From IMG/VR virus record IMGVR_UViG_3300006169_000035: a stretch of 64,000 nt of DNA. The stretch is one strand, 5' to 3'. Below the pieces are notes generated by a model. That model did no database searches and had not been told where the DNA came from. It worked only from the letters and a program-made list of their open reading frames with translations. The position numbers and the translations under genes are program-made. The DNA comes from an uncultured virus (IMG/VR IMGVR_UViG_3300006169_000035) (lineage: Duplodnaviria > Heunggongvirae > Uroviricota > Caudoviricetes). Shown one piece after another: positions 27,755 to 55,684 of the stretch; positions within the stretch are counted from its first letter, which is position 1, and each line of letters begins with the position of its first letter.

Positions 27755-28783
27755 TCAGAAACATCCGTTGGCGAGACGCCGGGCGGCACGATGGAGCCGC
27801 GGGTTGTCGATGGTGAGCGCCCGACGGAGCGCCGAGCTGTTTCGCAGAAGTGGATCGATCTCGGACATGGCCTTCTCGTTGCCGGCGTCAGCCTCCGCAG
27901 CGAGCTCGGTGAGTCTGTCCATGCTCTCGACGTCGAGGACACCGCGCTTGTACGGCGTGTGGCTCGCCTTCGAGATCTCGGCCATGCGCCGCGTCTTCAC
28001 CTGAACCTCGACCGGTCGACCGTCGACCGAGACGATGTAGTGCATCGCGCGGTAGCCCTGTTGGGGCGTCTTGTAGTAGTCGACCTTCTCCAGGACAGGG
28101 AAGTCCTCCTCGATCGCGGAGGTCGCCTTGCGCAGGCCGGCCTCGTCGGGCACGACGATCCGTGTGCCAGCGATGTCCGTCAGCGTGTCGAGGCGCTTGC
28201 GGCGAAGCTTGTTGACGATCGAGAACGGGGTCTTGACGCGGCCCTGGACTTTGGCCCCTTTGATCCGAAGCCCTTGCAGCCGATCGATCACGGTCTGCAT
28301 CGCCGGTAGGAACTCCTGCCGCGTGTCGATGAAGTGGCCGATTTCGTCCGAGAGCTGGACCTCCTCGATGCTCTTCTCGTCGCCGGCCTGAAACGGCCTC
28401 GGGTCGTCGACGTCCGGGATCGTGTCCGCGTCCGAGTCGTCGAAGACGGACGGGTAATCGCTGCGCCGGATCGGTCGCGGAGAGTTTGTCTCCCGCTCGA
28501 CCAGTGCCGGGATGCTGGACCATCCGGACTCGACAGCGACGGCGTAGGTGCTGTTGCCATCCAGAACCCTTCCGTCATGAGAGATCGAGATCGGGGCACG
28601 CTTGGTGCCGCCGGCACACGCCGCCTCCATGTGCTTGCGCGCGTTCACGATCCCGCTCGGCCGAGCACGGATCGGCTTGAGCTCGGCGATCGGCACAAGG
28701 ATCGTGCCGCGAGGTCGCGTGAAGTAGCTCCACGGCGACTCCGGCAGCGAGGCGCACTCCACGTTATGACGTCGCCGTGCCAT
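27755..28783 (-). CDS. ParB/Srx-like domain fused to RelA/SpoT small alarmone synthetase domain
   Basis: PISISHDGRVLDGNSTY; synthetase motifs GRVK..SI..KL, DIAGTRIV, GYRAMH, VEVQVKT. Confidence 0.85.
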   Translation of the reverse strand: MARRRHNVECASLPESPWSYFTRPRGTILVPIAELKPIRARPSGIVNARKHMEAACAGGTKRAPISISHDGRVLDGNSTYAVAVESGWSSIPALVERETNSPRPIRRSDYPSVFDDSDADTIPDVDDPRPFQAGDEKSIEEVQLSDEIGHFIDTRQEFLPAMQTVIDRLQGLRIKGAKVQGRVKTPFSIVNKLRRKRLDTLTDIAGTRIVVPDEAGLRKATSAIEEDFPVLEKVDYYKTPQQGYRAMHYIVSVDGRPVEVQVKTRRMAEISKASHTPYKRGVLDVESMDRLTELAAEADAGNEKAMSEIDPLLRNSSALRRALTIDNPRLHRAARRLANGCF

Positions 28784-29739
28784 GTCCAGATCTTACAGCA
28801 ACCGAGCCTCAAAAGAGTTCCTGCTGCCCTGGCTTCGGAGGAGGCACCAGGGAAGCAGGTTCTGGCGGTTGGGTTTCTTGCTTGGGAGCCGCCTTCGGGA
28901 TCTCGTCGGTCTTCGGAGGCGCTACGGGTTGTTCCTTCACGGCTCGAGCTCGCACGTCGACGACGGTGTCGTCAGGAGCCAGACGCACGAACCGATCGTG
29001 CAGCGTGAGGACGATGTGCCAGTCCGTCGTGACGGCGACGGCCTCGATCGTCTCGCCGTTCCACGCGTCGCCGATCTTCCAGCGCTTAGCGTGCTCTGCT
29101 CGAGCCATCGCTTCCGATCCGACGCTCATGCGTCCTTGTTCCGGCGCTCGGCGAGGTTGCAAGCGGCGATGATCTGCCGGGCCCATGCTCGCGCAGCCTT
29201 GGGTGTCATCGACCGTTCTTCATCCTCTGACACGCGCACCAGTACGCGAAACGAACCGTTGATCGTCGTGACGGACGCACCGACGTCGCTCTTCGTGGGG
29301 TAACGGACGATGGGCTCTTCGAGTTCGACGAGGATCGCTCGACCAAGGGGCGTAGCGTCGGAGACTTCGAGGCCCATGGCAGTCGCCGACGCCACATAGC
29401 CGGCGAGCGTAGGCTCGAACTGCAGCTGCCAGTGGCAGTACTTCGTCCAGATCTTAGCCCACGTGGCACCGTCATGGCTCGTGCGCAGCGCGATGGAGAG
29501 CTGCTCGATGATGGCTGCGACATCGCCGGCGTCGCGCTCACGAGCCAACGACGCCGACAGGATGCGACCTTCGAGCTCCTCGACGATCCTGATCGCACGC
29601 TGATGACGCGAGTGGTTGAGAACTGCCTTCGCAGAAGGCGTGAAGGCCGAAGCTTCTAGCATCGGAGATCCTTTCGGGTGAAGCGGCTCCTCGCCGCGTT
29701 GTGTCCGAGCTCGCTTGCGCTTGCACGAACGACACGAGA

Positions 29740-30075
29740 ATGCCATCGTCGAAGAGCGCCGTCAACAAGTCGGCGAAACAAGCGGCGAGGAGCCGCTTCA
29801 AGGAGAACGACATGGCGAAAGCGATGCGCAGGCGCTCATCTTCGATGCGCCCCGAAACGTACTGGAGACTGTTGCAACTCGTCCGCAAGGGCATAGCCGA
29901 AAGCGGATCGGCGATCATCGAGCGAACGGTCAACGACCTCGCCGACGCACACGGGATCCGCAAGGTGAGCCGCGAAGAAGCGTCGAGCATGCTCAACAAG
30001 GAGCAACGCAAGGGCAGACCGCCGGGTCCGGTCCCGAAGACGGAAGAGATCGTCTCGCAGCACTTCACCTTCTGA
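29740..30075 (+). CDS. Small basic protein, possible ribbon-helix-helix regulator
   Basis: RRSSSMRPETYWRLLQLVRKG..SGSAIIERTV. Confidence 0.45.
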   Translation: MPSSKSAVNKSAKQAARSRFKENDMAKAMRRRSSSMRPETYWRLLQLVRKGIAESGSAIIERTVNDLADAHGIRKVSREEASSMLNKEQRKGRPPGPVPKTEEIVSQHFTF

Positions 30076-30300
30076 TGGGCGCCGTCAATCCCAAGCAACG
30101 GCGCGAGCTCCATCAGAAGCTCGACGCTCTCATCGACGATCACGATGGCGGAGCCGAAGGAGCCTACGGCTTCCTACTTCTTCGCGAGGTCGATGTTCCC
30201 GACGGTGCGCACCGCAAGCGCAGCGTCGTAGCCCAGGGATGGATCGGCAAGAAGTCGTGGATCCTCTACGACCTCATCCGCCGCCTTCGAGGCCCGGACG

Positions 30301-30339
30301 AATAAAGAGACGGGCGCCTCGGTGAAGAGGCGCCCGTCA
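30301..30339 (-). terminator. Intrinsic terminator between convergent genes
   Basis: GACGGGCGCC (30309-18) pairs with GGCGCCCGTC (30330-39); TCTTTATT follows on the minus strand. Confidence 0.65.
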
Positions 30340-32734: not shown

Positions 32735-34138
32735 ATGCCGTACGCAGTCTTGTCGGAGAACGGAGAGGTACAGCTCGTCGAAAGCAGCCTGCGGCGCGCT
32801 GTCGATGCAGCCGAGAACGCTGGAGCGCTCGACGTCGTCATCGACACCGCGCCGACGGGGCGTCGACATAACCCGCCTCCGCGAGGCGAAGGCGCGCTCA
32901 AACAGCTGCGCCTGCCTGGCGGTCCGCAGCTCGCGATCCCAGCGGAGGCGTGCGACATGCCGCTGCGGGATGCGTGGCAGAACGTCAGAGCGAAGACGGA
33001 ACCGTTCACGCAGACCGGTCGCACGGGAATCGTCAGGCAGTTCTACCCCGCCGAGAAGTCGGCGACGCTCGTCAAGAGCATGCTCGGCCAGAACGCCAAG
33101 ACGGAGAAGAAGAAGGGGCACGCCGAGAACGTCGACGTCCAGGGCCTCAATCTCACGCCCTACTGGATGTTCGCCAACGAAGGCAAGCCGCTCGACGAAG
33201 TTCTGCACAGCAGCAAGCGCTTGCCGAACATGTGCGCCGGCAGCACCGAAGCGTGCCGTCACAGCTGTCTCGTCTTCGCCGGCCAGAACTACGCCGCCGA
33301 CTGGTCGATCTACGCCAAGTTCCTCAAGACGCGGATGCTCTTCGACGATCCGGTGTCGTTTGGGCGCCTGCTCTACGCCGCGTGCGAGCGTCACTATCGC
33401 AACTCGCCCAAGCACGGTTTCCTTCCAGCGGTGCGGCTCAACGTGCTCTCCGACGTCCCATGGGAGCTCGTGTTTCCCGAGCTCTTCGTGCGGCTGCCGG
33501 GTCTGCAGTTCTACGACTACACGAAGGTCCCAGGACGGGAGCCGCCGGCAAACTACGACCTGACCTTTTCCAACAGCGGCGGCAACGTCAAGCTCGTCGA
33601 GAAGCACCTCGCACAAGGCGGTCGCGTCGCCGTGGTTGCGCACGTGCCCGAGTGGCGCTTCGGTCCTCCAGTGCCTCCACGCAAGGAAGAGAGCAAGGCC
33701 GACTATGAGGCGCGCAAGGAAGAAGCGGCGCACAAGCTGTGGGTGCAGCGACTCCCGAAGTACTGCGAGATCGGCGGTCGCCGCTACCCTGTCATCGACG
33801 GCGATCGCAATGACGTTCGGTTCCTCGACAGCAAGCCGGCCATCGTCGCCCTGCGCTGGAAGAACCCCGGAGGCCAAGCAGCAGCTCGGGCTGCCGGTGC
33901 GCTCGGGATCAGCCAGCGCACCATGTTCGTCACCGAGATCGAAGACTTCTGCGGCTTGTGGATCGGAGCGGTGACACCATCGGAACAGCCCGACACGTTG
34001 GAGCCGACCGTCTACAATCTCACGCCGCTCGAAGCCAATCCCGGTGGCTCTCGAAGATCGAACCGCTGGGGCACGGCTCGAGCCGGCTACGGCGATGACA
34101 GGGCTCGACGAGCCGCCAACAGACTTGTCAACGGCTAG
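32735..34138 (+). CDS. GP88-like phage protein (Cys triad) with NP-bounded extensions
   Basis: MCAGSTEACRHSCL, RLNVLSDVPWE, QFYDYTK, NYDLTFS, VIDGDRNDVRFLD. Confidence 0.75.
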   Translation: MPYAVLSENGEVQLVESSLRRAVDAAENAGALDVVIDTAPTGRRHNPPPRGEGALKQLRLPGGPQLAIPAEACDMPLRDAWQNVRAKTEPFTQTGRTGIVRQFYPAEKSATLVKSMLGQNAKTEKKKGHAENVDVQGLNLTPYWMFANEGKPLDEVLHSSKRLPNMCAGSTEACRHSCLVFAGQNYAADWSIYAKFLKTRMLFDDPVSFGRLLYAACERHYRNSPKHGFLPAVRLNVLSDVPWELVFPELFVRLPGLQFYDYTKVPGREPPANYDLTFSNSGGNVKLVEKHLAQGGRVAVVAHVPEWRFGPPVPPRKEESKADYEARKEEAAHKLWVQRLPKYCEIGGRRYPVIDGDRNDVRFLDSKPAIVALRWKNPGGQAAARAAGALGISQRTMFVTEIEDFCGLWIGAVTPSEQPDTLEPTVYNLTPLEANPGGSRRSNRWGTARAGYGDDRARRAANRLVNG

Positions 34139-34848: not shown

Positions 34849-36039
34849 ATGCCACCCAATCCGCTCATCACCCAACTCGTCGACGCGCTCTACCAGAATC
34901 AGGCCGTCTTTCGCGTCATCACCGAGTTCGAGGAGAACGGCGAGCCCGTTCGTCCCACGGTCGCAACGGAAAACGTCGACATCCAGGCGATCGACGGCAG
35001 CCCCGAAGGTCGATCGGTAGGCTCGCCGGGAGACATTCGGATCCAGCGTGATGTTCCTGCGATCTGGCAGAAGGCGACGGGCGTCCGGACGACCGAGGGC
35101 TGGATCCTGATCGCAGGTGCTGCGAGCGAGGGTTGTCCGACAAACCTGATCACGGTCGGTCCGGGCTGTCTCTTCGAGACGATCCAGGCCGGCATCAACT
35201 TCGCAGCCACGATCCCAAGCGACACCGTCGTGCAGATCGCTCCAGGGACGTACACCGAGGACATCACGCTCGAACCGGGTGTGGCACTCGCTGGCATCGA
35301 GAACGCTCTGGTGACGATCAACGGAACCGTGACGTACCCGGGCGATCCAGGCGGAGAGGTGCGACTGCAGGACCTGACGATCTTCCCCGTGGGTGACGAT
35401 GCGATCGTGGTGGGCGGCACCGGCTCGCTTCTGCTGGAGGCGGATCGGATGCAGATCAACGGCAACATCGTCTTCACCAACACGGGAGCCGCCAGCAGCA
35501 TGGTGCTGCGCGACTCGGTCGTGGAGACTCCGGGACCCACGGCGATCACATGGAGCGGCGCACCGGGGTCCGTGTTCGAACTCGACGACACCAACGTGCT
35601 CGTCAGCGACCCGAGCAACAACGTCGCGATCGACTTCAACTCCGGCACGCTCATCGCCCAGTACGCGCTGATCTCAGGTCTCGTGGACTTCGCCGATGGT
35701 ACCGAAGGTGCCTTCCTTTTCTCGCGTATCGACGGCGCCGATCAGGAGGCGATGATCGTAGGCGCAGGAGCCGAGGTCGAGATGTACATCGTCGACCTCC
35801 ACAGCAACAACGCGAGCGGTAGCGTGATCGCGGGCGGTGGTGGAGCGATCGTCTTCAGCAACCTGTCGCTGTCAGGTAGCGCGAAGGACTACTCGGGCGC
35901 TGCCTCGACCGACGAGAGCGAGGCCTACGACACGGCCGTGGGAGCCAACTGGGCCGGAGCCTCTCCGCTCACGGTGAAGGAAGCCCTCGATCGACTGGCC
36001 GCTGCTGTCTCGGGCCTGCTCGGCGCCCCAATCCCGTGA
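34849..36039 (+). CDS. Pectin-lyase-like beta-helix protein, putative fibre/spike
   Basis: FETIQAGINFA...IAPGTYTEDITL..GVAL; repetitive beta pattern; C-terminal TVKEALDRLA. Confidence 0.65.
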   Translation: MPPNPLITQLVDALYQNQAVFRVITEFEENGEPVRPTVATENVDIQAIDGSPEGRSVGSPGDIRIQRDVPAIWQKATGVRTTEGWILIAGAASEGCPTNLITVGPGCLFETIQAGINFAATIPSDTVVQIAPGTYTEDITLEPGVALAGIENALVTINGTVTYPGDPGGEVRLQDLTIFPVGDDAIVVGGTGSLLLEADRMQINGNIVFTNTGAASSMVLRDSVVETPGPTAITWSGAPGSVFELDDTNVLVSDPSNNVAIDFNSGTLIAQYALISGLVDFADGTEGAFLFSRIDGADQEAMIVGAGAEVEMYIVDLHSNNASGSVIAGGGGAIVFSNLSLSGSAKDYSGAASTDESEAYDTAVGANWAGASPLTVKEALDRLAAAVSGLLGAPIP

Positions 36040-37275: not shown

Positions 37276-37294
37276 GGATGCGATACTACGGCAG

Positions 37295-44774: not shown

Positions 44775-45149
44775 TCAGTCCTTCGTTTTCTGCTGCTCCG
44801 CGAGCAGCTCTTCGAGTTTCTTGTGCGCGAGTTCCAGTGAACAGAGCATGCGGCGAGCTCGGAGCACACCGTACTTCGCCTGAGCGATCGCCACCGGCAG
44901 CAAGACACGCAGGAGTTCGACAGACGCCGGATCTTTCTCGATTCCGTAGCGGAACTGCATGAGCACGGGCTCGATCCAGTCCGTGCTCAGCATCATGTAG
45001 GCGTCAGCCTCGGCGAGGTATCCTCCGATGCTCGGTCCGCCGTTGTTGCGGACCGACTCCTCGATCTCGTCCGCGATGTCGTGGTCCTCGTCGCAGTACT
45101 CGGCCCAACGCCTGAGTTCCTCGGGGAGGTTGCTGTTGCTGTCGCTCAT
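44775..45149 (-). CDS. Hypothetical protein
   Basis: MSDSNSNLPEELRRW...; fits the operon. Confidence 0.55.
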   Translation of the reverse strand: MSDSNSNLPEELRRWAEYCDEDHDIADEIEESVRNNGGPSIGGYLAEADAYMMLSTDWIEPVLMQFRYGIEKDPASVELLRVLLPVAIAQAKYGVLRARRMLCSLELAHKKLEELLAEQQKTKD

Positions 45150-45339
45150 CGGCTGAGGACGCGCACGCAGGTCGGGCACCGGCTAATCGCGGTTCCTCTC
45201 GGCTTCGGTGCCGGCTGCGTTGGCGCGGTCGCCGTGCGCGTCGACAGCGACTGGGAAGCAGCGACCGGCACCTTTGCAGAGGTGCCGATGCGCTGCGTGA
45301 TGGGTTTCCCGATCCGGATGGCCATGGTCCGATCAGAGC

Positions 45340-46767: not shown

Positions 46768-47783
46768 GGCTGTTCCTGTGCTTGCTCGGGGGCGGCCTCC
46801 GAGGCATCTGTGGGTTCGACTTTCTCGCCTGGTGCGAAGGATGCTCCGTACCAACGCGTCTCGCTCGTTCGACCGATGCGAACGATCTGAGTGGATTTCT
46901 GCATGCGCTTGAGAGCCGACGCGACCTCCTTGGGGGTTCCGTCTACGATCTCAGGCAGCATCGACGCTCGCACGCCCTGCTCACCCGCAGAGATCACGAC
47001 GTTGAGCACGCGGCGTTCGAGCTCCATTCGAGCGCGTACGCGGGCGCCCTTGACGGGCATGTCTGGGATGCTCGTCTGCGACGGGCGTGGTCGCTCGAAG
47101 AGCGGAAGCTCGAGCCGTGCGAGGCCAGCCTGGTAGTGCTCCTTGTCGAGCTCCCAACCAACGAAGCGCCGCCCAAGACCGACGGCTGCAACTCCGGTTG
47201 TTGCCCATCCGGCGAACATATCGGCAATCGTCTCGCCCTCGTCGGTGAAGTCGGCGATGAGATCACGCATGAGACCTGCCGGCTTCTGTGTCGGATGCCG
47301 CGGCTTGTCGCGGCAGATCATGTGAGGCCAGATCGCCGGCTTGCCGCCACCGTTCCACCGCTGCGTCAGGATCCGACTGTGCGCGATGACGATCGCCTCG
47401 GTTCCTTGAGCAGGTCCATCGCCCGTCATCTGTGGCTGCGTGCCGAGACGAAGCCAATGGCCTGTCCGGTAGTACGACATGCCGGCGGCGATGATGGCGA
47501 AGCGCCATAGATGCGCCTCTTCCTCATCGCAGAAGATGAGCGCCCAGCGACGACACTTCTGCGCGGTGACTCGAGCCGTCCGATTGCGGAGCTCGTCGTT
47601 CATCGGCGCGAAGTTGAACTGGTTGTCGCGGACGCGGTTGGCGGCGTTGCCGTCGTCGACGGCCTTCGAGTACGGCGGGTCGATGAAGACGTGGTCGACG
47701 TCGGGATGGGCGAGGAGCCCCTCGACGCCATCGCCGTAGTGAAATCTCCAGGGTCGATCGGGCTGGGCAGGTTCGGGAGTCAC
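46764..47783 (-). CDS. Amino-methyltransferase (N6-A/N4-C DNA methylase, beta class) with C-terminal HTH-like segment
   Basis: IDPPY, HPTQKP..LM, DMFAG..TTGVAA..LGR.F.G.E. Confidence 0.9.
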   Translation of the reverse strand: MTPEPAQPDRPWRFHYGDGVEGLLAHPDVDHVFIDPPYSKAVDDGNAANRVRDNQFNFAPMNDELRNRTARVTAQKCRRWALIFCDEEEAHLWRFAIIAAGMSYYRTGHWLRLGTQPQMTGDGPAQGTEAIVIAHSRILTQRWNGGGKPAIWPHMICRDKPRHPTQKPAGLMRDLIADFTDEGETIADMFAGWATTGVAAVGLGRRFVGWELDKEHYQAGLARLELPLFERPRPSQTSIPDMPVKGARVRARMELERRVLNVVISAGEQGVRASMLPEIVDGTPKEVASALKRMQKSTQIVRIGRTSETRWYGASFAPGEKVEPTDASEAAPEQAQEQP

Positions 47784-48323: not shown

Positions 48324-48770
48324 TCAGGCTGCTGCAGCGAGAGCGACTGGGGCTGTGTAGGGAACCGCGTAGGGAGCGGTCCAGCCCGGGTAGCTGTAGC
48401 CGTAGCCGAACGGGTAGCTGTACGGCCATCCGCCGAACCAAGTCGGCGCGATGGGCCTCGCGACCGCGTACGAGACCGGCGGATACACGGGCGCAGCGTA
48501 CGGGTACGGCCAGCCGTAGCCGTATCCGTATCCGCCCCAAGGCCAGCCCCAGCCGCCCCAGCCGCCCCAGCCGCCCCAGCCGCCCCAGCCGCCCCAGCCT
48601 CGCCAGCGATGGCCGCCGCCGCTGCCGACGATGCTCGTTCCGCCACCGCCACCATCTCCGCTGATCCCCGAAGGCACGTGCGCAGCTCCGCTGACGATGC
48701 GTGTCTGATTCAAGAGACGACCACCGGGGACGGACGTCAGGCTGCTGCGACGGATTCTTTTTCGGGCCAC
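48324..48770 (-). CDS. Basic leader plus Gly/Trp/Tyr/Pro low-complexity protein
   Basis: GGAGG RBS; (GWG)n then GWPWGGYGYGYGWPYPY. Confidence 0.7.
   Translation of the reverse strand: MARKRIRRSSLTSVPGGRLLNQTRIVSGAAHVPSGISGDGGGGGTSIVGSGGGHRWRGWGGWGGWGGWGGWGGWGWPWGGYGYGYGWPYPYAAPVYPPVSYAVARPIAPTWFGGWPYSYPFGYGYSYPGWTAPYAVPYTAPVALAAAA
48547..48599. repeat. 9-bp tandem repeat (CCCCAGCCG) x5 plus partial copy, encoding GWG repeats
   Basis: Read directly from the sequence. Confidence 0.95.
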
Positions 48771-48837
48771 AGGGGAACCTCCGGATCGACCCTACATCGG
48801 CCGCGCCCCAAACCCAAGGGGCGTCGCAGAACAGGGT

Positions 48838-49125
48838 CTAGCTCTCGTTCCAGACGGTTCCGAGCCAGTGGCCCAGGCCGAAGACGATGAGGTCGACCGC
48901 GATGTTCGGGTAGTCCTCGGGGCCCGATGTGTTGAAGATCGTCTTGCCCACGTCGGCTCGTTCGAGAGCCTGCTCGAAGACTTCGTACGCCGACGCCGCG
49001 AGCATCGACCACACGAAAGGGATCTCCATCAGGCCGAAGCTGAGCCCGATCCCGAAGTGCACGATCGTCCACGGATCGATCGCTGCTCCGTTCTGCTCGC
49101 TCTTGCGGGTCGCAACGAGCTTCAT
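48838..49125 (-). CDS. Small polytopic membrane protein with D-x-W-x-x-x-H / E-x-x-E / N-x-x-x-D polar motifs
   Basis: IDPWTIVHFGIG...AYEVFEQ...PEDYPNIAVDL. Confidence 0.7.
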   Translation of the reverse strand: MKLVATRKSEQNGAAIDPWTIVHFGIGLSFGLMEIPFVWSMLAASAYEVFEQALERADVGKTIFNTSGPEDYPNIAVDLIVFGLGHWLGTVWNES

Positions 49126-49553
49126 CGCACCACGTTCGCTCCGATGAGCGCGCCTCCGATCGGCAGCGCGTAGATCCAGATGTTGCCGAGCACAGGGTGC
49201 ATCGCGACCAGGTCAGGATCGAGAACGAACGGAAGCTCGCCGAGTACGACCCCGATCGCGGTGCCGATCGTGGCGGCAGTTCGCGTAGGGCGAGGTGACG
49301 TGATGGCTGCGCCTGCGCTCGCGGCAACGAGGTGGAAAGCGGCGCATCGGAGACGGACGTTACGGTTGCGTCCGTAGGTCTGGTCGTAGTTCCAGCCGCC
49401 GGTACGGAGACGAGTGAATGCGGCCGCGGCGAGCGCTGCGAGAACTCCTCCCGCTGCAGCTCCGAGCGCAGCTCGTCCTCCGATCGGCAACGGGTTCTGC
49501 TCGACCCACGGATCGAGCATGTCGTCCTCGAGAACTTCGTAGAGCTCGCTCAC
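49122..49553 (-). CDS. Polytopic membrane protein
   Basis: Acidic leader, QNP, then 3-4 hydrophobic segments. Confidence 0.65.
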   Translation of the reverse strand: MSELYEVLEDDMLDPWVEQNPLPIGGRAALGAAAGGVLAALAAAAFTRLRTGGWNYDQTYGRNRNVRLRCAAFHLVAASAGAAITSPRPTRTAATIGTAIGVVLGELPFVLDPDLVAMHPVLGNIWIYALPIGGALIGANVVR

Positions 49554-49771
49554 GACGGCTCCTTTCGATCGTCGTCGAAGATGTTGCCCCATGGCAGATG
49601 GGCGATCGCTACGCCGGCGCCGAGCACGAGTGCACCGATCGCGATGGCTGGCTTGCGATAGAGATCGGCGATCGTTGCTCCCACGCCAGCGATCCCGATG
49701 CCGAGACCGAGCGCTGCAAGAGTGCGACGCGTCGGACCTCGTGAGATCGGATTCTGGTCGTCCACGGGCAA
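49550..49771 (-). CDS. Small two-TM protein
   Basis: DDQNP...LAALGLGIGIAGVG...IAIGALVLGAGVAIA. Confidence 0.6.
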   Translation of the reverse strand: MPVDDQNPISRGPTRRTLAALGLGIGIAGVGATIADLYRKPAIAIGALVLGAGVAIAHLPWGNIFDDDRKEPS

Positions 49772-49777
49772 GCTCCT

Positions 49778-50560
49778 TTACGGCGCGAACGACAGCTGGC
49801 CGGGTTGCGCTCCGCCACCCTTACCGACGCCGGGCCCTGGATCGGGATCAGGGAGTCTGATCTCCGGAACCACCGTCGGATCGAAGTCGCCGAATCCGAG
49901 CTCAGCGAGACGCTCGGCGATCTGCTCGTCGACGAAGTCGGGGTCGCTCGTGCCGAGAACGCGACCACCTTCGGCGATGATGGTCCGGCCGATCACGTAG
50001 ACGAGCCCCATGTAGAGGTTCGCCATGCGGGCCGTCGACGACGGATCGCCTGGCATCGGGACCGGTGGCCAGCGGCACTCCTCCCAGAACTCCATGAAGA
50101 AGTCCGTCGCGAGTTCGGTTGGGTCGGCGCTCTTGGCTGCTGCATCGCTGCTCTCGGCCACGGCGACGTCGATGAGCGCGGAGAGGTACTGGATCTGCGG
50201 ACCTTCTTCGCCTTCGACGAAGACGAAGTCCGAGCAGCCCTCGCCGACGTAGAAGCCAGCCGGCGTCGTCGGTCCCGGTTCGCAACCGTCCTTGTCGCGA
50301 ACGAAGCCGGGATAGTCGGCGCCGCACGGACCAACGCCGAGTCCCCGATCGGGCGGCTCTGTGATGATCGGCGGGATCGGCCGATCGGGCTTGCCGTTCT
50401 GTGGTGGCGGCGGAAGCTCGGACATGTCCTTCTTCCGCCGCCGATCCTCGTATGCACGGTAGCCCCAGTAGCTGAGGCCTCCGACGGCGATGGCGCTGAC
50501 CCCGATGATCGCCCAGGTCAACGGCTTGGGGTTGCGTCGAGATCTGCGTCGCTTCGCCAT
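49778..50560 (-). CDS. Single-pass membrane protein with basic-NP leader
   Basis: MAKRRRSRRNPKPLTWAIIGVSAIAVGGLSYWGY; Cys-containing ectodomain. Confidence 0.8.
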   Translation of the reverse strand: MAKRRRSRRNPKPLTWAIIGVSAIAVGGLSYWGYRAYEDRRRKKDMSELPPPPQNGKPDRPIPPIITEPPDRGLGVGPCGADYPGFVRDKDGCEPGPTTPAGFYVGEGCSDFVFVEGEEGPQIQYLSALIDVAVAESSDAAAKSADPTELATDFFMEFWEECRWPPVPMPGDPSSTARMANLYMGLVYVIGRTIIAEGGRVLGTSDPDFVDEQIAERLAELGFGDFDPTVVPEIRLPDPDPGPGVGKGGGAQPGQLSFAP

Positions 50561-50571
50561 CGTCGTTCTCC

Positions 50572-51351
50572 TTACGGATTGCTCAGCCGGTTCGCCAGTC
50601 GCTTCTGGCGTTCGGGGTTGTTCGCGAGGTCGCCCTGTCGCTCGCGCTCGTAGGCACCAGGGTTCCCCTGGCGAGCCCTGACGCCCATCGCGGAGAACGT
50701 ATCCGCTGCTGCCTTCTGGCTCGGCGCTCCGGGTCCGCATACCGCCTTGGCACGACGGGCACTCGGGCGCTTGCCGCCGGTGCGCTTGCGACTTCCCGAA
50801 CCGACGACGCACGCGGCCTTCGTCGACTTCGAGATCCGACCTGAGCGCTTCGCGACCGGAAGCGGCGTCTTGCGCTTCTTCTTGCCGCGCTTCTTGCCAC
50901 GCTTCTTCTTGCCGGCCTTCTTGCCGCGCTTCTTCTTCGGCGGGTTGTCGTCGCGCATCTCGGCGTTCGAGGCGACGGCCCGAGCGCGCTTCTTGCTGCG
51001 ACGCTTGGCGCCCTTCTTCCCGCGCTTCTTCCCGCGACGCTTCTTGCCGACCTTCTTGCGACGCTTCTTGCCGGCCTTCTTCGCGACCTTCTTGCGACGT
51101 CGCTTGCCGACCTTCTTGCCGGCCTTCTTCCCGCGCTTCTTCCCGCGCTTCTTCCCGCGACGCTTCTTGCCGACCTTCTTGCGACGCTTCTTCTTGCCGG
51201 CGGGAGCCTCGGCCGAAGCGGCCTTCTTGCGGCGCTTCTTCTTGCCGCCCTTCTTCTTGCCGCGGCGCTTGCCGGCCTTCACGGCCGTGCTGCCGGCCTT
51301 CTTGCCGCGGCGCTTGCCGGACTTCTTGGATGCTGTCTTGGCACGAGCCAT
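50572..51351 (-). CDS. Lys/Arg-rich histone/protamine-like protein
   Basis: KKRGKK / KKVGKKRR repeats over about 170 aa; GAGGAG RBS; AAG/CGC codon bias. Confidence 0.85.
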   Translation of the reverse strand: MARAKTASKKSGKRRGKKAGSTAVKAGKRRGKKKGGKKKRRKKAASAEAPAGKKKRRKKVGKKRRGKKRGKKRGKKAGKKVGKRRRKKVAKKAGKKRRKKVGKKRRGKKRGKKGAKRRSKKRARAVASNAEMRDDNPPKKKRGKKAGKKKRGKKRGKKKRKTPLPVAKRSGRISKSTKAACVVGSGSRKRTGGKRPSARRAKAVCGPGAPSQKAAADTFSAMGVRARQGNPGAYERERQGDLANNPERQKRLANRLSNP

Positions 51352-51390
51352 GGGGTTTCTCCTCTTCCAGATACTACAACGTTCGCGGTG

Positions 51391-51693
51391 TCAATGGTCG
51401 AGTAGTAGATGCAGGTGCTTGCGAAACTGCTGCAGGAAGTCGTCCGCGGCGACCGTTTGCGAGGTCTCGGTGGCGTCCCGGAGTTCCCGCTGCAGCTTCG
51501 TCAACGCGGAGCGTGAGAGATCCGCGTCACCGATCGGAAATCCGTGGATCCACATCCGCTGCTGGACGAGCGGTAGATCAGCGCGGAGCTGGATGAGCTC
51601 ACGCTGAGGCGCCCTCGCGGCAGGATTCACGGCCTTGGCCCGGCGAGCCCACGGCCGCACGCGCACAGGAGCAGCAAGTGCCTTGCGAGTCAT
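51391..51693 (-). CDS. Hypothetical protein with basic-NP leader
   Basis: MTRKALAAPVRVRPWARRAKAVNP...; ATGA coupling. Confidence 0.55.
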   Translation of the reverse strand: MTRKALAAPVRVRPWARRAKAVNPAARAPQRELIQLRADLPLVQQRMWIHGFPIGDADLSRSALTKLQRELRDATETSQTVAADDFLQQFRKHLHLLLDH

Positions 51694-52655
51694 CTCGACT
51701 CCCCTCGGGCGAGTCGACGCGCCATGTTGCGGATCCGTTGTTGCTCGGTCCGCTCGCTCACCGAGCGAGGGCCCCACGGGTTGAGAGCTCGAGCCGGGCG
51801 GTAGACGATCTTCTGCGGGTTCGGCTCGGATCCGCCAGCGAGTCGTACCAGGGCGTTAGGGTTCGCATGGCGCCCTCGCAGGAGCTTCTTGTAGTCGCCT
51901 GGTCGCACGTCGAGTTCGAGATCGGCGTCGCGCGGATATCCCTTGTCGATCAGCTTCGCGACGTCTTCGAGCGGCACTTCGACGACGTCGACAAGGCGAT
52001 CTCCACGAAAGAGGAAGTACGCCTCCTTGGGACCACCACTTCCGATCCAGCTGGTTGGCGTGACGCGGATGAGCGTCATGCCAGAAGATGGGTTGTGCTC
52101 CTTCTCGATCGTGGCGAGCTTCCGATAGTAGTCGCGATCCTCGACGAGATGGTCCATGGCGATCGCGAGAGCCGTGTCCGTATCGTCCGTGTGTTCGAGC
52201 TCCACCTTCAGCCCGCGGACGACCTCGGCCGTCTTGAACTCGTCTGCGGTGCGGCCGTCGGCAAGACCGCCGCGTCGAGGCGCTCGCCAACCCTCATGCT
52301 GGCGAGCCTTGACGTGGCACTTGATCTTGTCGTCGCTCATCGGTCCCGGATTTCCTTTGCGATCGGAAAGCTCGGCTTCGTAGACAGCTCCCGATGGGTC
52401 CACGATCCATCCGTTGACCTTGGTCGTTCCCGGCTTGTATTTGCCGAGATCTTCGGTCTCGAACCCGATGAAGTTCACGGGGCGCATGAAGCTCGAACCC
52501 GGAATGACCACGCGGTTCTTGCCGTCCTTGCGGGCGTAGTGTGCAGCGGCCACGATCGCGTACTCGGTGTTCTCCGGGTGGGCGCGCCAGTTCGCGACGG
52601 CGCGCTTTGGCTTCGCGCTCACCTGACCCAACCGATCGCCTCGCGTGACCTTCAT
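51690..52655 (-). CDS. NP-punctuated multi-module protein containing a DUF5661-like domain
   Basis: GLKVELEHT....ALAIAMDHL.E..DYY.KL flanked by KGNP and EHNP; 5 NP. Confidence 0.75.
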   Translation of the reverse strand: MKVTRGDRLGQVSAKPKRAVANWRAHPENTEYAIVAAAHYARKDGKNRVVIPGSSFMRPVNFIGFETEDLGKYKPGTTKVNGWIVDPSGAVYEAELSDRKGNPGPMSDDKIKCHVKARQHEGWRAPRRGGLADGRTADEFKTAEVVRGLKVELEHTDDTDTALAIAMDHLVEDRDYYRKLATIEKEHNPSSGMTLIRVTPTSWIGSGGPKEAYFLFRGDRLVDVVEVPLEDVAKLIDKGYPRDADLELDVRPGDYKKLLRGRHANPNALVRLAGGSEPNPQKIVYRPARALNPWGPRSVSERTEQQRIRNMARRLARGESR

Positions 52656-52667
52656 CTGCCTTGTCCG

Positions 52668-53390
52668 CTAGTTCGCCTTCAGCCACTTCGCGAAGTCGCT
52701 GCCCCAGTCGTCCATGTTCGCACGGAGCTCCTTGAGGCGCTTGCGCGACTGTTCGAGACCCTCGCCGCCGGCGTAGTCCTTCTCGGCACTTGCCTCACCG
52801 ATCCAGTAGGCAGCGCGCACGAGCGATCCGACCGACCGGCGCACGTCGTTGCGTTCTAGCTGGTCGGACGCAGCGGTGAGCTCGCGGTCGGCCGCTGCGA
52901 CAGCAGACTTGAACGATCGAGCCGACTGTGCAGGGTCGTGCGTGTTGCGGGCTCGGGCGCCCCGCTGCGAGCCTCCTCGCTTCGTGCCCGGATTTCTCAC
53001 CTTGGCGGTCTCCAACCACCTCGGGTGCGCCCAGTTTTCGGCGCTCTTGGGAAGCTGCCTGTCTTGTATGAAAGCGTCGACGGTGTCGTTCCAGGCTTCG
53101 CGTCGAGCCGGCTTGTCGGGCACGCCATCTTGCTCGTACTGCTGCGCGATGTAGGGCAGAACCTCCTCACGAAAATACGACTCGAAGTCCTTCTTCGACA
53201 TGGGGTTGCTGCGACGACGCTTCGTTTGCTTCGCCCACTTCACGCGCCAGTCGTTGCCCTGCTTGAAGACGGAGACGTTTTTCACGTCGGGGGACTTCGA
53301 GATGAAGTCTGCGAACGCCTGAGCATCCGACTTCTTCGCATACGGAACTCCGACTCTCGCCTCCCATGGATTCGTGCTCTTCTTCGCCAT
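52668..53390 (-). CDS. NP-punctuated three-module protein
   Basis: MAKKSTNP..., RRRSNP MSKKDF..DKPARREAWND..., KVRNP... Confidence 0.75.
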   Translation of the reverse strand: MAKKSTNPWEARVGVPYAKKSDAQAFADFISKSPDVKNVSVFKQGNDWRVKWAKQTKRRRSNPMSKKDFESYFREEVLPYIAQQYEQDGVPDKPARREAWNDTVDAFIQDRQLPKSAENWAHPRWLETAKVRNPGTKRGGSQRGARARNTHDPAQSARSFKSAVAAADRELTAASDQLERNDVRRSVGSLVRAAYWIGEASAEKDYAGGEGLEQSRKRLKELRANMDDWGSDFAKWLKAN

Positions 53391-53404
53391 CGCCTTGTTC
53401 TCCC

Positions 53405-55684
53405 TCAGCCCGGGTTCGCGAGTCGAGCCGCTGCTCGGCGCTCGCAGATGTTCGCGCAGTGGCAGGGGTTGCCCGCCTTCGGCTGCGCTGTCATCACGCG
53501 CTCGTAGTACGCCTTGTCGATGTTGTCGGTCGAACGGATGACGACGTAGTCGCCGTAGCGCTTGTCCTCCCAGACCGACTGCGCGGTACCGTGGTGATCG
53601 GCTCGAGCCTGGGCGTACTTCTTCGCGAGCGCCAGGTCGTCGAGGCTCACGCCGCCCTTGTCCTTCACCCACGCCTCGTTGAGGCCCTTCGGGTTCGAGG
53701 ATCGAGGCTTGACCGGCGGCGGACCGCGACGACCACCGCGCTCCCACTTCTCCCGCTCCTTGCGGTACTTCGCGAGTTCGACCGCGTCGCCCTTGTAGGG
53801 GTTCTTTCGCTTACCCTCCTTCGTGTACTCGGTACGAAGAACATCGCGAGTCTCACGCCCAAGCGACGTCAGCCCATCGTCGTCGACGAGCTCCATGCGA
53901 TCGAGCAACAGCCACACCTTGTCTGGTATGTGCTGACGCGCTTGTGCTCCACCGGCCGCCGCGAACAAGGCTTTGATGTGGCGACCCGTCGGTTTCTTGT
54001 CCAAGGACATAAGCTCCTCGGCAGCATCACGGGCCTTATTGCGTTCGCTGTTGCGGGCAGGATTGCGGCCAGGCTTGGCCTCCTTCTTCTGGCGTCGCCT
54101 TGGGTTGCTCTGCTTGCGCTCCTCGGCTGCATCGATCGCGGAGTAGACGACGTTGTCCATCTCTGCCGAGAGCTTCTCGTACGACTTGCGCAGCTTCTTG
54201 TCGGAGTCGATCGCTCGCTTGAGGTTCTCCCAGTCGGGCCCGTCGATGTTCTCCCAGAAGCCGACGCCGTGGCCGACGAACGCAGCCCAAGTGTTGAAGG
54301 CGATGTCGTCCTCGGACTCGACGTCGTCGGTGCCCTCAAGGCCTGACGTGCTGCCCGGCGGCCTCTTCATCCACGCGTTCACGACGCGGTTCGCCTCGCG
54401 CGTGAACGCGTTCTTGGCGGCTTCGAGTTCCTTGGTGTGGTGGACCTCGTTCTCCACGTCGCTCGTCGTCAAATCGTCGCGTTCTTGGACCGCGCCTTCG
54501 ATCATGCCGTCGATCTCGAAGTCCACCCACTCGCTGGCGGAGTAGTGGCGCCCTTGGTTGGTCTTGCGACCGCGAGGGTTTTCGCTCTTGCGTGCGGCCT
54601 CGAAGGCCTTCTTTGCAGCCGCGTAGCTGCGGCGTGCGACCGCGTTGATGTCGTCGCCGAACGTCTCCTCCATCTCGGCGTAGGTCTTGGTGGACGGTTC
54701 CGCATCGACGTTGTCGGAGCCGTGATACCCCGCGCCCATTTCAGCGACGCGCCACTTCGCGAGCGGATCACCGGATGCGAGCTCTCGGATCTCTGCCTTG
54801 GTCGTGCCGTACGTGCTGGCGATCTCCCCGAGGTCGGACTTCATCCAGTCGAGCTGGTTTTCGAGGACGTCCTCGTCGGGATCGTACGGGAACCACCGAA
54901 CCTCGTAGGTTGCGGACTCGATCTCGTCCTCGTCCTCTGGTGCTTCCCAGAAGATCCAGCGCAACTCCTTGTACGTGGGGTCGTAGTACAGGATCCCTCC
55001 GCCGTGCGTCAGCGGATCGACGTCGCCGGTGCTGAGGATCGGAATGTTGCGCTCTGGGTTCTTCCGACCCTTCTTCTTCCCACTCTTCTTCTTCACGCTC
55101 TGCCTCTTCTTTCCGCGCCAGCCAGGTTCGATCCGATCGGCGATCGCGGCACAGTAGGCACCGGGATCGGAAACCTTCTTCTTCCCGCGGCGCTTGCTGA
55201 CCTTCTTGATGCAGCCGCTGACGCTGCCGCCGGGCATCTCCTTCATCGGGTTGCCCTTGCGACCTCGCTTCTTGCGACGCGGGTTGTCCTCGGAGTACGC
55301 CGCGCTCACCAGCGCCTCTTCGAGCATCGCGTAGGGCTCTTCGAGCTCCTTGCGGAGGCACGACGATATCTTCTGCCAACGGCGCTCGGTGGCATCGGGG
55401 TAGAACTCGTCCCATCTGCCATCCCAGATCCCGACGCCTTCGCCGGCGAGTGTCGCGTAGACGTCGTACGCGGTCCCCGGATCGTTGAAGAGCCGCGACG
55501 TGTTTCCCTTCGGAGGGAACTTCTTGAAGCAGGACTTGAGCGCTTCCTGGACGCTCTCCTCGAAGTAGACCGATGCGTCCCGTACCTCGTCAGGCATGCT
55601 GACCCGCTTGTCCGCGAGACCGTCGAGGACGAACTGCGCCCAGTCTTCAGGCGCATACTCCGGGTTCTTCTTCTTGCGTGCCAT
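53405..55684 (-). CDS. 759-aa NP-punctuated multi-module protein (putative polyprotein)
   Basis: 11 NP dipeptides in basic linkers separating mostly acidic modules. Confidence 0.8.
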   Translation of the reverse strand: MARKKKNPEYAPEDWAQFVLDGLADKRVSMPDEVRDASVYFEESVQEALKSCFKKFPPKGNTSRLFNDPGTAYDVYATLAGEGVGIWDGRWDEFYPDATERRWQKISSCLRKELEEPYAMLEEALVSAAYSEDNPRRKKRGRKGNPMKEMPGGSVSGCIKKVSKRRGKKKVSDPGAYCAAIADRIEPGWRGKKRQSVKKKSGKKKGRKNPERNIPILSTGDVDPLTHGGGILYYDPTYKELRWIFWEAPEDEDEIESATYEVRWFPYDPDEDVLENQLDWMKSDLGEIASTYGTTKAEIRELASGDPLAKWRVAEMGAGYHGSDNVDAEPSTKTYAEMEETFGDDINAVARRSYAAAKKAFEAARKSENPRGRKTNQGRHYSASEWVDFEIDGMIEGAVQERDDLTTSDVENEVHHTKELEAAKNAFTREANRVVNAWMKRPPGSTSGLEGTDDVESEDDIAFNTWAAFVGHGVGFWENIDGPDWENLKRAIDSDKKLRKSYEKLSAEMDNVVYSAIDAAEERKQSNPRRRQKKEAKPGRNPARNSERNKARDAAEELMSLDKKPTGRHIKALFAAAGGAQARQHIPDKVWLLLDRMELVDDDGLTSLGRETRDVLRTEYTKEGKRKNPYKGDAVELAKYRKEREKWERGGRRGPPPVKPRSSNPKGLNEAWVKDKGGVSLDDLALAKKYAQARADHHGTAQSVWEDKRYGDYVVIRSTDNIDKAYYERVMTAQPKAGNPCHCANICERRAAARLANPG

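Follow-up and report, generated by a model that had tools for sequence, protein, structure and literature searches.

A lineage-specific C-terminal tail on unrelated proteins of an uncultured mobile element and its possible role as a docking tag

Encapsulin cargo-loading peptides are short, lie at the C-termini of unrelated enzymes behind a flexible linker, dock inside the protein shell and have a consensus of the Gly/Ser-Leu-Lys type. In phage T4 the capsid targeting tag sits at the N-terminus and is removed by the prohead protease. For type IV secretion (T4SS) substrates, transfer signals at the C-terminus, positively charged and in the form of loose charge patterns, are established; basic-rich C-terminal recognition motifs are known in ClpX substrates such as MuA, and sliding clamps are a classic meeting point of unrelated proteins with short C-terminal motifs, which have the spacing Q-L-x-L-F. 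In the 80alpha scaffold and SaPI1 CpmB, the last 16 residues form an 11-residue amphipathic helix and a 5-residue hook (RIIK) that dock on the capsid protein (PMC5644958, the portion used here). The portion of PMC5512222 used here proposes that polyvalent proteins are transferred with DNA; it describes RelA/SpoT and DdrB-type ParB as phage-type domains, and Prim-Pol and RadC as typical of conjugative-element polyvalent proteins. A MuF head protein fused to RelA/SpoT-type pyrophosphokinase domains is also known (PMC12226406, in part).

We analysed a stretch of 64,000 nucleotides from an uncultured virus (the window), in which a sequence-only reading had noticed a common C-terminal end on five soluble proteins. 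The tails are present in the translations of all five genes (Table 1) and, as that reading held, lie within three residues of the stop (0–3 residues, in ORFs of 268 aa or more). The gene starts are our own calls, the length of g93 being counted from an ATG with a ribosome-binding site; the tails are independent of these calls because the stops do not depend on them. The core can be written as hydrophobic-[A/K]-x-[R/K]-L-x-[N/R/K], within a short basic amphipathic helix that usually has Asn-Pro at its start and Gly or Pro at its end, with 0–4 residues beyond. The AF2 model of g54 has a confident domain (pLDDT above 90) and places the tail in a separate helix (residues 328–338, pLDDT ~58–78) directly after N326-P327. 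An NP had been said always to precede the tag; one does stand 8 to 27 residues ahead of the anchor Leu, but NP is generally over-represented in these proteins (79 seen versus 33 expected). The proteins are indeed unrelated, since their bodies without the last 20 aa gave BLASTP E > 0.9 in every pair. Three belong to Pfam families (RelA_SpoT, GP88 and DUF5661), and g89 and g93 have no family.

Table 1. Coordinates in the window of the tagged genes, their tails and other features discussed.
Feature	Position	Strand	Description
g54	27755-28783	minus	ParB-like + RelA/SpoT-like; translated end ...NPRLHRAARRLANGCF*
g54 tail	27755..27808	minus	NP-RLHRAARRLAN-G-CF + stop
g65	32735-34138	plus	GP88 domain protein; translated end ...DDRARRAANRLVNG*
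g65 tail	34109..34138	plus	RAANRLVNG + stop
g89	50572-51351	minus	259 aa, Lys/Arg-rich, DNA-condensing-type; translated end ...NNPERQKRLANRLSNP*
g89 tail	50572..50619	minus	NP-ERQKRLANRLSNP + stop
g91	51690-52655	minus	DUF5661 protein; translated end ...RIRNMARRLARGESR*
g91 tail	51690..51728	minus	NMARRLARG-ESR + stop
g93	53405-55684	minus	759-aa multi-domain protein; translated end ...CERRAAARLANPG*
g93 tail	53405..53437	minus	RAAARLANPG + stop
g58	30075-30305		76 aa
g58 tail	30273..30305	plus	possible weaker sixth tail; LIRRLRGPDE + stop
g2	364..2124	minus	586-aa HerA/FtsK-type P-loop ATPase (DUF87); Pfam DUF87 3.1e-14
g67	34849..36039	plus	acidic 396-aa right-handed beta-helix, spike/depolymerase type (ESM Atlas)
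Untagged block adjoining the tagged genes	55997..63742	minus	syntenic with L035 genes 1-12
g102	59459-60214		ChaB-like conserved protein of the untagged block

The motif RL[AVS][NR][GP] matched 11 times in all six frames of the window, and five of these matches are the tails; of the other six, five lie in short or non-coding frames and one in a long ORF upstream of the called start. A looser motif ([LAMIV][AK].[RK]L[ASVLMIT][NRKQ], ending ≤4 aa from the stop) was C-terminal in 5/107 complete window proteins, compared to a single internal match in 20,089 aa. In the control loci (L001–L033, among which the gene caller performs poorly on low-GC loci) it was C-terminal in none of 299 proteins, with two internal matches in 65,820 aa. 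The C-termini were also scanned with a weight matrix trained on 15 tails, all from non-window proteins. It placed the five tagged proteins at ranks 1 to 5 of the 107 (scores 15.3, 15.0, 10.9, 10.6 and 6.8; best of 18,698 internal positions, 8.4), with a bias favouring g54 and g91, homologues of which supplied some of the training tails. The protein g58 ties with g65 for fifth, and its possible tail is proposed solely from this score of 6.8.

Related metagenomic contigs were retrieved via a common 50-aa module. In L035, 11 of 28 genes are tagged (genes 13–20 and 22–24, ending L-K-x-K-L-L-[RK]), and ∼14 of 19 complete genes in L036 have an LKRRLLR-like end; in both, the tag is on most soluble proteins of the corresponding gene block. 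Two of the 15 genes of L037 are tagged (its K/R-rich g1 has the position of g89 in the syntenic block and the end NPDRQKRLARRLANP), as is one of eight in L034, while L038 is an ordinary tailed phage with only the module in common and no tags. The original observation is confirmed and is wider than first reported. The claim that membrane proteins lack the tag holds for the window (0/25 proteins with a hydrophobic segment) and only there, the relatives being less strict: glycine-rich hydrophobic segments occur in 2 of the 11 tagged proteins of L035. The consensus is uniform inside one element and different between elements, as would be the case if a single co-evolving receptor had to accommodate every tag.

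NP and tail are present in all 10 closest clusters of RelA-like homologues of g54, including three in which the order of the ParB-like and RelA-like domains is reversed and the tail is still last. Among the six next more distant ones read (P0075–P0080) none has the tail, and P0076–P0080 end at the domain boundary. Only in a few relatives do DUF5661 proteins have it (the g91 homologues P0037, P0051 and P0053 end ARRL[AGS]RGE..), and the g93 homologue P0006 ends RAAHRLSNP. In L035, segments of g93 occur as individual tagged proteins; several domains are concatenated in g93 and in P0010, P0061 is a fusion of DUF5661 and GP88, and RelA-like homologues also form part of long proteins that combine many domains (Kinase-PolyVal, Zeta toxin, SNF2, RadC and DUF3560). 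The tagged set of the relatives includes Prim-Pol and a zincin peptidase.

We asked whether the peptide could be a by-product of RNA signals, merely the translation of gene ends that encode ribosome-binding sites and stop/start overlaps. GGAG, GAGG or AGGA lies within the 7-codon core in 15 of 31 tagged genes, all 15 in L035 or L036, and in 14 of these the next gene overlaps or starts ≤9 nt on (the gap after L036 g1 is 140 nt). The final codons of g91 also serve as a ribosome-binding site and contain the start of the following gene, which overlaps, the post-core G-E-S-R being encoded by this site and an ATGA overlap. However, the core contains a binding site in 0/8 tails from the window, L037 and L034, no start follows within 25 nt in 4/31 tagged genes, and the next start is 115 nt from g54. 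Moreover, the same residues use other codons where a gap separates the next gene: the Arg-Arg pair of L036 is CGG-AGG or CGG-AGT (the ribosome-binding site) at overlaps, whereas this position reads CGC-CGC, CGC-CGA or CAG-CGG where a gap follows. A binding site does not account for the Leu, Lys and Ala positions either, and the tail is retained in the 10 RelA-like clusters, which have different contexts. This comparison of overlapping and gapped gene ends largely refutes the by-product explanation, which we regard as highly improbable. Conservation sits in the peptide, because the codons differ among the five window tails; the anchor Leu uses five different codons across tails. Thus, the tag exists and is selected at the peptide level, strictly C-terminal, portable and lineage-specific.

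What might read such a tail? As a basic amphipathic helix it could bind the membrane or DNA of the element directly, without a dedicated protein receptor, in the manner of MinD/FtsA-type membrane-targeting helices or basic DNA 'sled' peptides. In its favour, the core has hydrophobic residues at positions -4, 0 and +1 within a basic, amphipathic tail, the neighbouring block is rich in membrane proteins, and the L036 type LKRRLLR resembles both MinD-type tails and the basic peptide pVIc of adenovirus. Nevertheless, we consider direct tethering unlikely: with a single large hydrophobic residue and two or three positive charges, the window type A-A-R-R-L-A-N-G is weakly equipped to bind a membrane or DNA; g89, already extremely basic, keeps a conserved tail that DNA binding would not require; and a fitted pocket would more typically go with the strict C-terminal place, the capping residues and the uniformity within each lineage. 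It is very unlikely that the tail is a degradation or chaperone tag, read by a protease or unfoldase of the host or element and timing the life of early proteins. Its strictly C-terminal position and the basic-rich ClpX motifs of proteins such as MuA would agree with this, but in one block as many as ∼14 of 19 proteins would be marked, a DNA-condensing protein among them, the tails vary between closely related elements, and the window annotation has no Clp- or Lon-like gene. Docking on the DnaN-like sliding clamp g39 (PHROG 947 'processivity factor' 4.5e-24, TIGR00663 2.9e-15) appears extremely improbable; some L035 tails start Q-L, but the window tails have neither Gln nor the Q-L-x-L-F spacing, and the tagged set is a structural-type block with a histone-like protein and a peptidase.

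The untagged block encodes small single-pass membrane proteins, many of which begin with M-A-(K/R)n-N-P and continue into a hydrophobic helix, together with the SLT transglycosylase g104 and g102. In the ESM Atlas, g67 has a feature score of 0.92 to viral DUF1565 and tail-spike clusters and a structure TM of 0.6 to beta-helix families, and it has no sequence match in PDB; among the window proteins, this predicted fold gives the strongest hint of a virion, as a lead only. The ATPase g2 matches PHROG 2666 'terminase large subunit' (3.9e-17), with only weak VirB4/HerA matches in NCBIfam (29 bits versus cut-offs of 325–970), and is a candidate for the DNA-translocating ATPase of the element. Together with a membrane-anchored SLT, an M23 peptidase, an integrase and ParB, g67 and g2 give the window a virus-like context. 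Capsid, portal, scaffold and prohead-protease families were not detected among the 108 window proteins (Pfam, PHROGs, NCBIfam), the source contig of 75,067 bp extending ∼11 kb beyond the window, or among 79 related-locus proteins, L038 apart. IMG/VR scans with four different markers returned no relative (the DUF5661 search matched the domain only), indicating that IMG/VR does not recognise the family as viral; GenBank phages and PLSDB yielded no relatives either. The uncultured element, rich in membrane proteins, is probably a non-tailed virus.

These genes also bear on whether the basic tail could be a translocation signal, read by a type IV coupling-protein-like or FtsK/HerA-like DNA/protein-translocating ATPase, with conjugation-like export with DNA, or pumping into a pre-formed vesicle, instead of assembly docking. 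C-terminal positive signals are found on type IV secretion substrates, and the window has the HerA/FtsK-type ATPase with its weak VirB4-like matches, an SLT hydrolase, the M23 peptidase, many small membrane proteins, integrase and ParB, and no capsid gene was found in it. The tail is, however, a tight 7-residue motif compared to the loose charge patterns of T4SS signals. Proteins accompany DNA through T4SS, and polyvalent proteins of the conjugative type include Prim-Pol and RadC domains (PMC5512222, in part). On the other hand, no relaxase, VirD4-type coupling protein, VirB6-like polytopic protein or pilin was significant among the 108 proteins, the VirB4-like matches (22–29 bits versus cut-offs of 325–590) cover the P-loop only, g102 has no relative among 72,556 plasmids, a spike-like beta-helix protein is present, and the Lys/Arg-rich condensing protein is less suited to single-strand transfer than to double-stranded DNA in a package. 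Translocation is an improbable explanation.

The reading that we favour, at somewhat better than even chances, is that the tail is a portable docking tag (an amphipathic helix and a short end) that loads a core and effector set into the particle. The tail would bind one element-encoded receptor (a shell, scaffold or matrix component) during particle building, and the Lys/Arg-rich DNA-condensing protein and enzymes (alarmone-synthetase-like, GP88 and DUF5661; in relatives Prim-Pol and zincin peptidase) would thereby be taken in, the cargo possibly reaching the next cell together with the DNA. Docking is supported by the C-terminal enrichment in the window and its absence from the controls, by the frequency of the tag on soluble block proteins of related contigs, by its uniform consensus within each element, by its portability and peptide-level selection, by the predicted separate helix, by the virus-like context, by cargo domain families proposed to be delivered with invading DNA (PMC5512222, in part) and by the precedent of the 80alpha/CpmB tail (PMC5644958, in part). 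It is weakened by the failure to detect capsid, portal, scaffold and prohead-protease families in the window and related loci (L038 apart) or a relative in IMG/VR, by Prim-Pol and RadC on or fused to relatives, as is typical of conjugative-element polyvalent proteins (PMC5512222, in part), and by window tails (R-L-A-N-G) that are less 'hook-like' than RIIK. The earlier suggestion of a removable capsid-loading peptide is partly supported, in that the tail is a portable, protein-level, strictly C-terminal tag, but no capsid, portal or scaffold match was found for the window in Pfam, PHROGs or NCBIfam. The sole tagged peptidase candidate is L035 g20 (HExxH), and the window has no catalytic counterpart.

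Finally, we compared the tail with known systems. With a short helix that is predicted to be capped and to end in a few further residues, the tail resembles the solved 80alpha scaffold/CpmB capsid-docking tail, as a likeness of pattern without sequence homology. Both are strictly C-terminal, with an ∼11-residue amphipathic helix followed by basic-aliphatic-aliphatic-basic residues (K-R-I-I-K versus K-R-R-L-L-R in L036 and K-N-K-L-L-R in L035), and in 80alpha/CpmB, too, one tail is common to two otherwise different proteins, which compete for one capsid-protein site (PMC5644958, in part). Here, in contrast, the tail is found on 5 (window) to ∼14 (L036) unrelated proteins, for the most part enzymes together with a DNA-condensing protein; neither a scaffold nor an HK97-type capsid protein was identified, and the end of the window variant is R-L-[ASV]-N-[GP]. 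With encapsulin peptides the tail shares its shortness and its C-terminal place on unrelated enzymes, but it differs from them in consensus and in its context, a mobile element with DNA-handling genes, and no encapsulin shell gene was detected among the window proteins. Like T4SS signals it is C-terminal, Arg-rich and on unrelated proteins, which would here, too, accompany transferred DNA, but its motif is much tighter and lineage-specific, and a type IV secretion gene set was not found in the window. The T4 tag differs in being N-terminal, whereas the tag here is C-terminal. Nevertheless, the T4 sequence, which PMC5512222 mentions, is likewise a short peptide common to unrelated proteins (internal proteins and Alt). 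These are packed in the head and co-injected with DNA, host-modifying enzymes among them. Polyvalent proteins have the same domain repertoire (RelA/SpoT, ParB-like, RadC, Prim-Pol and zincin peptidase) and the same proposed job, the delivery of early-acting proteins with DNA; the main text of PMC5512222, to the extent used here, does not contain the terms 'C-terminal tail', DUF5661, GP88 or ChaB. While polyvalent proteins fuse their domains in one chain, many separate proteins here each carry a common terminal tag. If the docking reading is true, this tag does the job that polyvalent proteins do by fusing such domains.

The five tails lie at the C-termini exactly as the sequence-only reading had written them, as translation confirmed, and they end 0-3 residues from the stop; of 11 six-frame matches to the motif, 5 are the tails of long open reading frames. 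The tagged proteins of the window are g54 (ParB-like plus RelA/SpoT-like), a GP88 protein (g65), a Lys/Arg-rich protein (g89), a DUF5661 protein (g91) and a 759-aa multi-domain protein (g93). They are unrelated in body by sequence comparison, and codon usage varies between their tails. A looser form of the motif was C-terminal in 5/107 window proteins versus a single internal match in 20,089 residues. Similar tails were also sought elsewhere: the looser motif stood at the C-terminus of none of the 299 proteins from control loci, which include 30 unrelated IMG/VR loci sharing with g91 only the 60-aa DUF5661 domain (the only part of g91 that was found in IMG/VR). When all C-termini were scanned with a weight matrix trained solely on tails of other metagenomic proteins (none from the window), the five tagged proteins took ranks 1-5 of 107, and g58 appeared as a weak sixth tail. 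The tag was at the C-terminus in every case, with the core 0-6 residues from the end in 31 tails.

Seven homologues of g93 were found among 5.8 billion clusters. Four of the seven have a C-terminal tail of this kind (AAHRLSNP, LKNRLMR, LKRRLL and LKRRLTR), and a 50-residue module is common to the homologues. With this module we retrieved the metagenome contigs L034-L037, whose tagged genes are listed in the table; the window, L035 and L037 are parts of larger contigs (75 kb, 103 kb and 52 kb, respectively). The window block is syntenic with L035 and L037, and in L035 the tagged run is preceded upstream by 12 genes that carry no tag and code mostly for membrane proteins. Parts of g93 occur in L035 as individual genes, each with a tag (g16, g19 and g20); therefore g93 is a fusion that keeps one tail at its end. 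L038, an ordinary tailed phage locus with MuF and capsid protein E, has only the module in common and carries no tags. Domains are shuffled among the 'core' proteins of the element family, as in the homologue cluster P0010, which fuses the N-terminal domain of g91, the 50-aa module (MPGGSVSGC...ADRIEPGW) and a RadC domain. A Lys/Arg-rich tagged protein of L035 consists of ∼7 tandem 23-residue units (RRRKKRRSKRRNPEETTTKETAP), each with its own basic run and NP.

The tail is also portable. A search with g54 among 1.84 billion representatives gave 2,890 relatives of the RelA-like domain, and all 10 closest clusters (50-62% identity) end in N-P, 3-16 residues, [LM]-A-[RE]-R-[LV]-x-[NRK]-G and 0-3 further residues. 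The domain order is reversed in three of these 10 (RelA-like, then ParB-like) and the tail is still last. It is absent from the six next-closest matches examined; P0076-P0080 end where the domain naturally ends. Of 29 DUF5661 proteins related to g91 (g91 itself counted), three end in ARRL[AGS]RGE..., P0062 has the variant tail LARDLSRTEKR, P0038 and P0039 have a tail-like core followed by ∼15 more residues, and 8 of the remaining 22 terminate at the DUF5661 domain.

Is the conserved element a peptide or a signal in the RNA? A ribosome-binding site lies within the core in 15 of the 31 tails, and in L035 and L036 it is often that of the next, overlapping gene; it lies within the core in 0/8 tails of the window, L037 and L034. 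Where the next gene is further off, the same tail residues are written in codons without a binding site, and the anchor leucine is encoded by five different codons. The conserved element is therefore the peptide, and its codons take on an additional role where one is required. In the L036 tails the Arg-Arg codons CGG AGG also supply the ribosome-binding site for the next, overlapping gene.

In the AF2 model of g54 (mean pLDDT 78 from a 40-row alignment) the catalytic domain is predicted with confidence; T-I-D-N-P, a separate lower-confidence helix (328-338) and G-C-F follow it. Judged by this model, Asn-Pro would serve as the helix N-cap and Gly/Pro as the C-cap. NP was also considered as a protease site; we set this aside for helix capping, as the modelled tail helix would start right after N-P. 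The dipeptide is 2.4 times over-represented in the window proteome (79 observed versus 33 expected), with sites before transmembrane helices and at domain junctions, an excess that helix capping by Asn-Pro would explain. A prohead-type protease family for tag removal was not found in the window. Many minus-strand proteins of one window block start with M-A-(K/R)3-9-N-P and then directly a hydrophobic helix; a basic run with NP also occurs at domain junctions of soluble proteins, and g93 contains 11 NP. We take the basic run with NP to reflect a tendency of this lineage to cap helices that follow basic linkers; cleavage at NP is also possible.

Tagged proteins of the relatives include LigD-type Prim-Pol, HTH, YunG and DUF5591 proteins. 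One further tagged protein, of L035 only, has an HExxH motif, a weak match to the DUF6782 metallopeptidases and the module adjoining; from its sequence it is a candidate processing peptidase bearing the same address tag. The best-supported reading makes the tail a tag for docking at a single site encoded by the element, because the motif is tight, uniform within an element, different between elements and always at a free C-terminus, and because the proteins that carry it would be of use on entry. The earlier interpretation as a removable capsid-loading or ejection peptide is supported in part: the tail is a tag, for which capsid loading and removal are conjectural. Co-folding of the g54 tail (296-342) together with g102, the domain of g106 and the acidic C-terminal part of g103 scored 0.00; as four chains lie beyond the calibration of the tool, the score speaks neither for nor against binding. 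To our knowledge, the selection of proteins that travel with the DNA is understood for only a few model phages. The tag is short and easily recognised, so that the likely cargo of this uncultured family can be read straight from sequence; it includes a DNA-condensing protein and three kinds of enzyme (alarmone-synthetase-like, primase-polymerase and zincin peptidase). It also offers a testable case of tag-receptor co-evolution across lineages, and, as a compact natural peptide, it might be tried as a means to load foreign proteins into particles.

Locations of the features in the window and in related loci
Feature	Location	Strand	Remark
Integrase, ParB, DnaN-like clamp, Dda-type helicase, DNA methylases	window		Pfam/PHROGs/NCBIfam
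g2, HerA/FtsK-type ATPase	window		Pfam/PHROGs/NCBIfam
M23 peptidase; SLT transglycosylase with membrane anchor	window		Pfam/PHROGs/NCBIfam
Sugar-modifying enzymes, clustered	window		Pfam/PHROGs/NCBIfam
g6 and g8	window 3159-5178 region	minus	signal-like N-termini
Sugar-gene run	window 36044-47783		between tagged genes
Gly-Trp, Tyr-Pro, Pro-Tyr repeat proteins	window 48324-48677, 57390-57887; L035:12960-13241		position kept in relative
Small single-pass membrane proteins, then soluble proteins of unknown family	window 48.8-64 kb	minus	
Proteins with M-A-(K/R)3-9-N-P start	window 48800-64000	minus	examples 55997-56380, 56394-56609, 59040-59459, 62082-62984
g93	window 53405-55684		units individually tagged at L035:8174-8701, 9384-9641, 9638-10399
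g102	window 59459-60214		ChaB-like
HExxH tagged protein	L035:9638-10399		candidate peptidase
Lys/Arg-rich tagged repeat protein	L035:12148-12906		23-residue units
DUF87 ATPase locus, Methylobacterium plasmid pAMS5a	L042 (62947-79717)		no tails
Tagged genes, L035	11/28 genes (11/12 of genes 13-24)		L-K-x-K-L-L-[RK]
Tagged genes, L036	∼14/19 complete genes		LKRRLLR-like
Tagged genes, L037	2/15 genes		...NPDRQKRLARRLANP (K/R-rich protein, g89 position) and ...RLATRLARGTR
Tagged genes, L034	1/8 genes		LKTKLLR

The window has a G+C content of 64% along its entire length and 108 genes by codon-usage gene calling, and it is part of a source contig of 75,067 bp. A search with Pfam, PHROGs and NCBIfam detected among the 108 window proteins none of the families for capsid, portal, terminase-nuclease, tail, relaxase or type IV secretion, nor an encapsulin (HK97-fold) shell gene in the window, such as would lie beside the cargo genes if the tag were an encapsulin cargo-loading peptide; a scaffold or capsid family was found neither in these proteins nor in L034-L037, ∼11 kb of the source contig lying outside the window and this search. 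A virion is hinted at by the spike-like beta-helix protein g67, which we treat as a lead, by a LamG protein that matches 'virion structural' PHROGs weakly, and by fibre-like paralogues with collagen-like stretches in L035. A PDB sequence search gave no match for g67 and only weak collagen-like stretches for g27 of L035. The most conserved protein of the block is g102 (24 homologues, 36-74% identity), with a ChaB-like helical hairpin at the N-terminus. It has four conserved Cys, of which two are invariant and the others almost so, and a YIH motif (consensus YIHNHWYD) that is invariant. Pfam ChaB matched it at no better than E = 0.029, its AF2 model (pLDDT 81) matched only ChaB (1sg7) in Foldseek, and for its beta domain no solved fold exceeded Z 4.6 (VIA-align, 48,161 chains). 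In the search of g102 for a protease or capsid fold, its neighbours in the ESM Atlas were ChaB/XkdF prohead-protease clusters scoring 0.76-0.87, under the 0.9 bar.

Relatives of g93 were found in neither GenBank phages, IMG/VR nor GTDB genomes, and the 50-aa module gave only weak unrelated matches in IMG/VR and GTDB. Alignments of g107, g102 and the RelA-like domain had no relative in IMG/VR, and g102 had none among plasmids. No relative of the element family was found in IMG/VR, GenBank phages or PLSDB, which is compatible with a non-tailed virus that contains a membrane, with a vesicle-type element that lacks a capsid, or with a novel kind of transfer apparatus. Alphaproteobacterial plasmids encode DUF87 proteins that share ∼37% identity with the N-terminal half of g2. 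At the one plasmid locus examined for this lead, L042 on a non-mobilizable 118-kb plasmid, the 300-aa DUF87 ATPase (identity to that half of g2 likewise ∼37%) has a hydrophobic helix at its C-terminus and is accompanied by a transglycosylase, DUF1653 and numerous small unknown genes. The locus has no tails and may be distantly related to the transfer or packaging module.

Glycosyltransferase, sulfotransferase, rhamnosyl O-methyltransferase and other methyltransferase genes form a run that is partly syntenic with L037 (where a GDP-mannose dehydratase is extra) and may serve element-encoded glycan modification of the particle or host surface. The N-terminus of g6 is signal-like, and the protein matches extracellular PHA-depolymerase-type esterases weakly; a twin-arginine-type signal (MLTRRSFLSGLG...) stands at the start of g8. 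Gly-Trp, Tyr-Pro and Pro-Tyr repeats (GWGGWGGW..., WPYPY...) make up the bulk of several small proteins.

How does the tag compare with known systems? The T4-type capsid targeting sequence is N-terminal and is cut by the prohead protease at a defined site, whereas the tag described here is C-terminal throughout and preceded by an NP modelled as a helix cap. For type IV secretion, the set of VirB4, VirD4-type coupling protein, relaxase and VirB6-like channel protein was not found within the window; the VirB4-like matches of g2 are at the P-loop level only (29 and 22 bits versus cut-offs of 590 and 325). Beta-clamp motifs follow a Q-L-[SD]-L-F-like pentapeptide or Q-x-x-L-x-x-F, and none of the five window tails has the Gln or its spacing. 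The closest solved precedent is the tail of the 80alpha scaffold and SaPI1 CpmB, described as an 11-residue amphipathic helix and a 5-residue hook with RIIK, docking on the capsid protein (PMC5644958). Like this tail, the tag is a predicted extreme C-terminal amphipathic helix of ∼11 residues with a short end (g54 AF2 model). The basic-aliphatic-aliphatic-basic chemistry of RIIK is matched by the L035 and L036 ends K-L-L-[RK] and R-L-L-[RK], and it fits the window ends R-L-[ASV]-[NR]-[GP] in part only. The 80alpha motif sits on a scaffolding protein and binds an HK97-fold capsid protein, and neither family was found in the window or L034-L037.

The domain set of the tagged proteins is the repertoire of the 'polyvalent proteins' (Iyer et al. 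2017), phage or conjugative-element polypeptides that each carry many effector-type domains. These are proposed to be packaged in the phage head or to pass with the DNA through type IV systems, RelA/SpoT and DdrB-type ParB being listed among the phage-type domains, Prim-Pol and RadC among the conjugative-type ones (PMC5512222); toxins of temperate phages are described in which a pyrophosphokinase is fused to MuF (PMC12226406). Homologues of the RelA-like domain occur in long proteins with Kinase-PolyVal, Zeta-toxin, SNF2, RadC, DUF3560 and DUF2958, and P0061 is a DUF5661 and GP88 fusion. Of the tagged proteins, g93 unites parts encoded by separate genes in L035, g54 combines a ParB-like with a RelA-like domain, and the rest contain one or two domains each. 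It is conceivable, if rather doubtful, that the contigs represent an uncharted non-tailed lineage of bacterial viruses (membrane-containing or capsid-less and vesicle-like), in whose particles a histone-like nucleoprotein core and a dozen enzymes would share the same 7-8-residue C-terminal helix-and-hook tag as a modular alternative to polyvalent proteins, tag and receptor co-evolving (RLANG, RRLLR and KLLR types). Titles and abstract openings of the literature on membrane-containing phages and capsid-targeting tags held no description of the tag or the element family. As a kind, terminal address peptides for particle cargo are already known; the element family that carries the tag here looks new.
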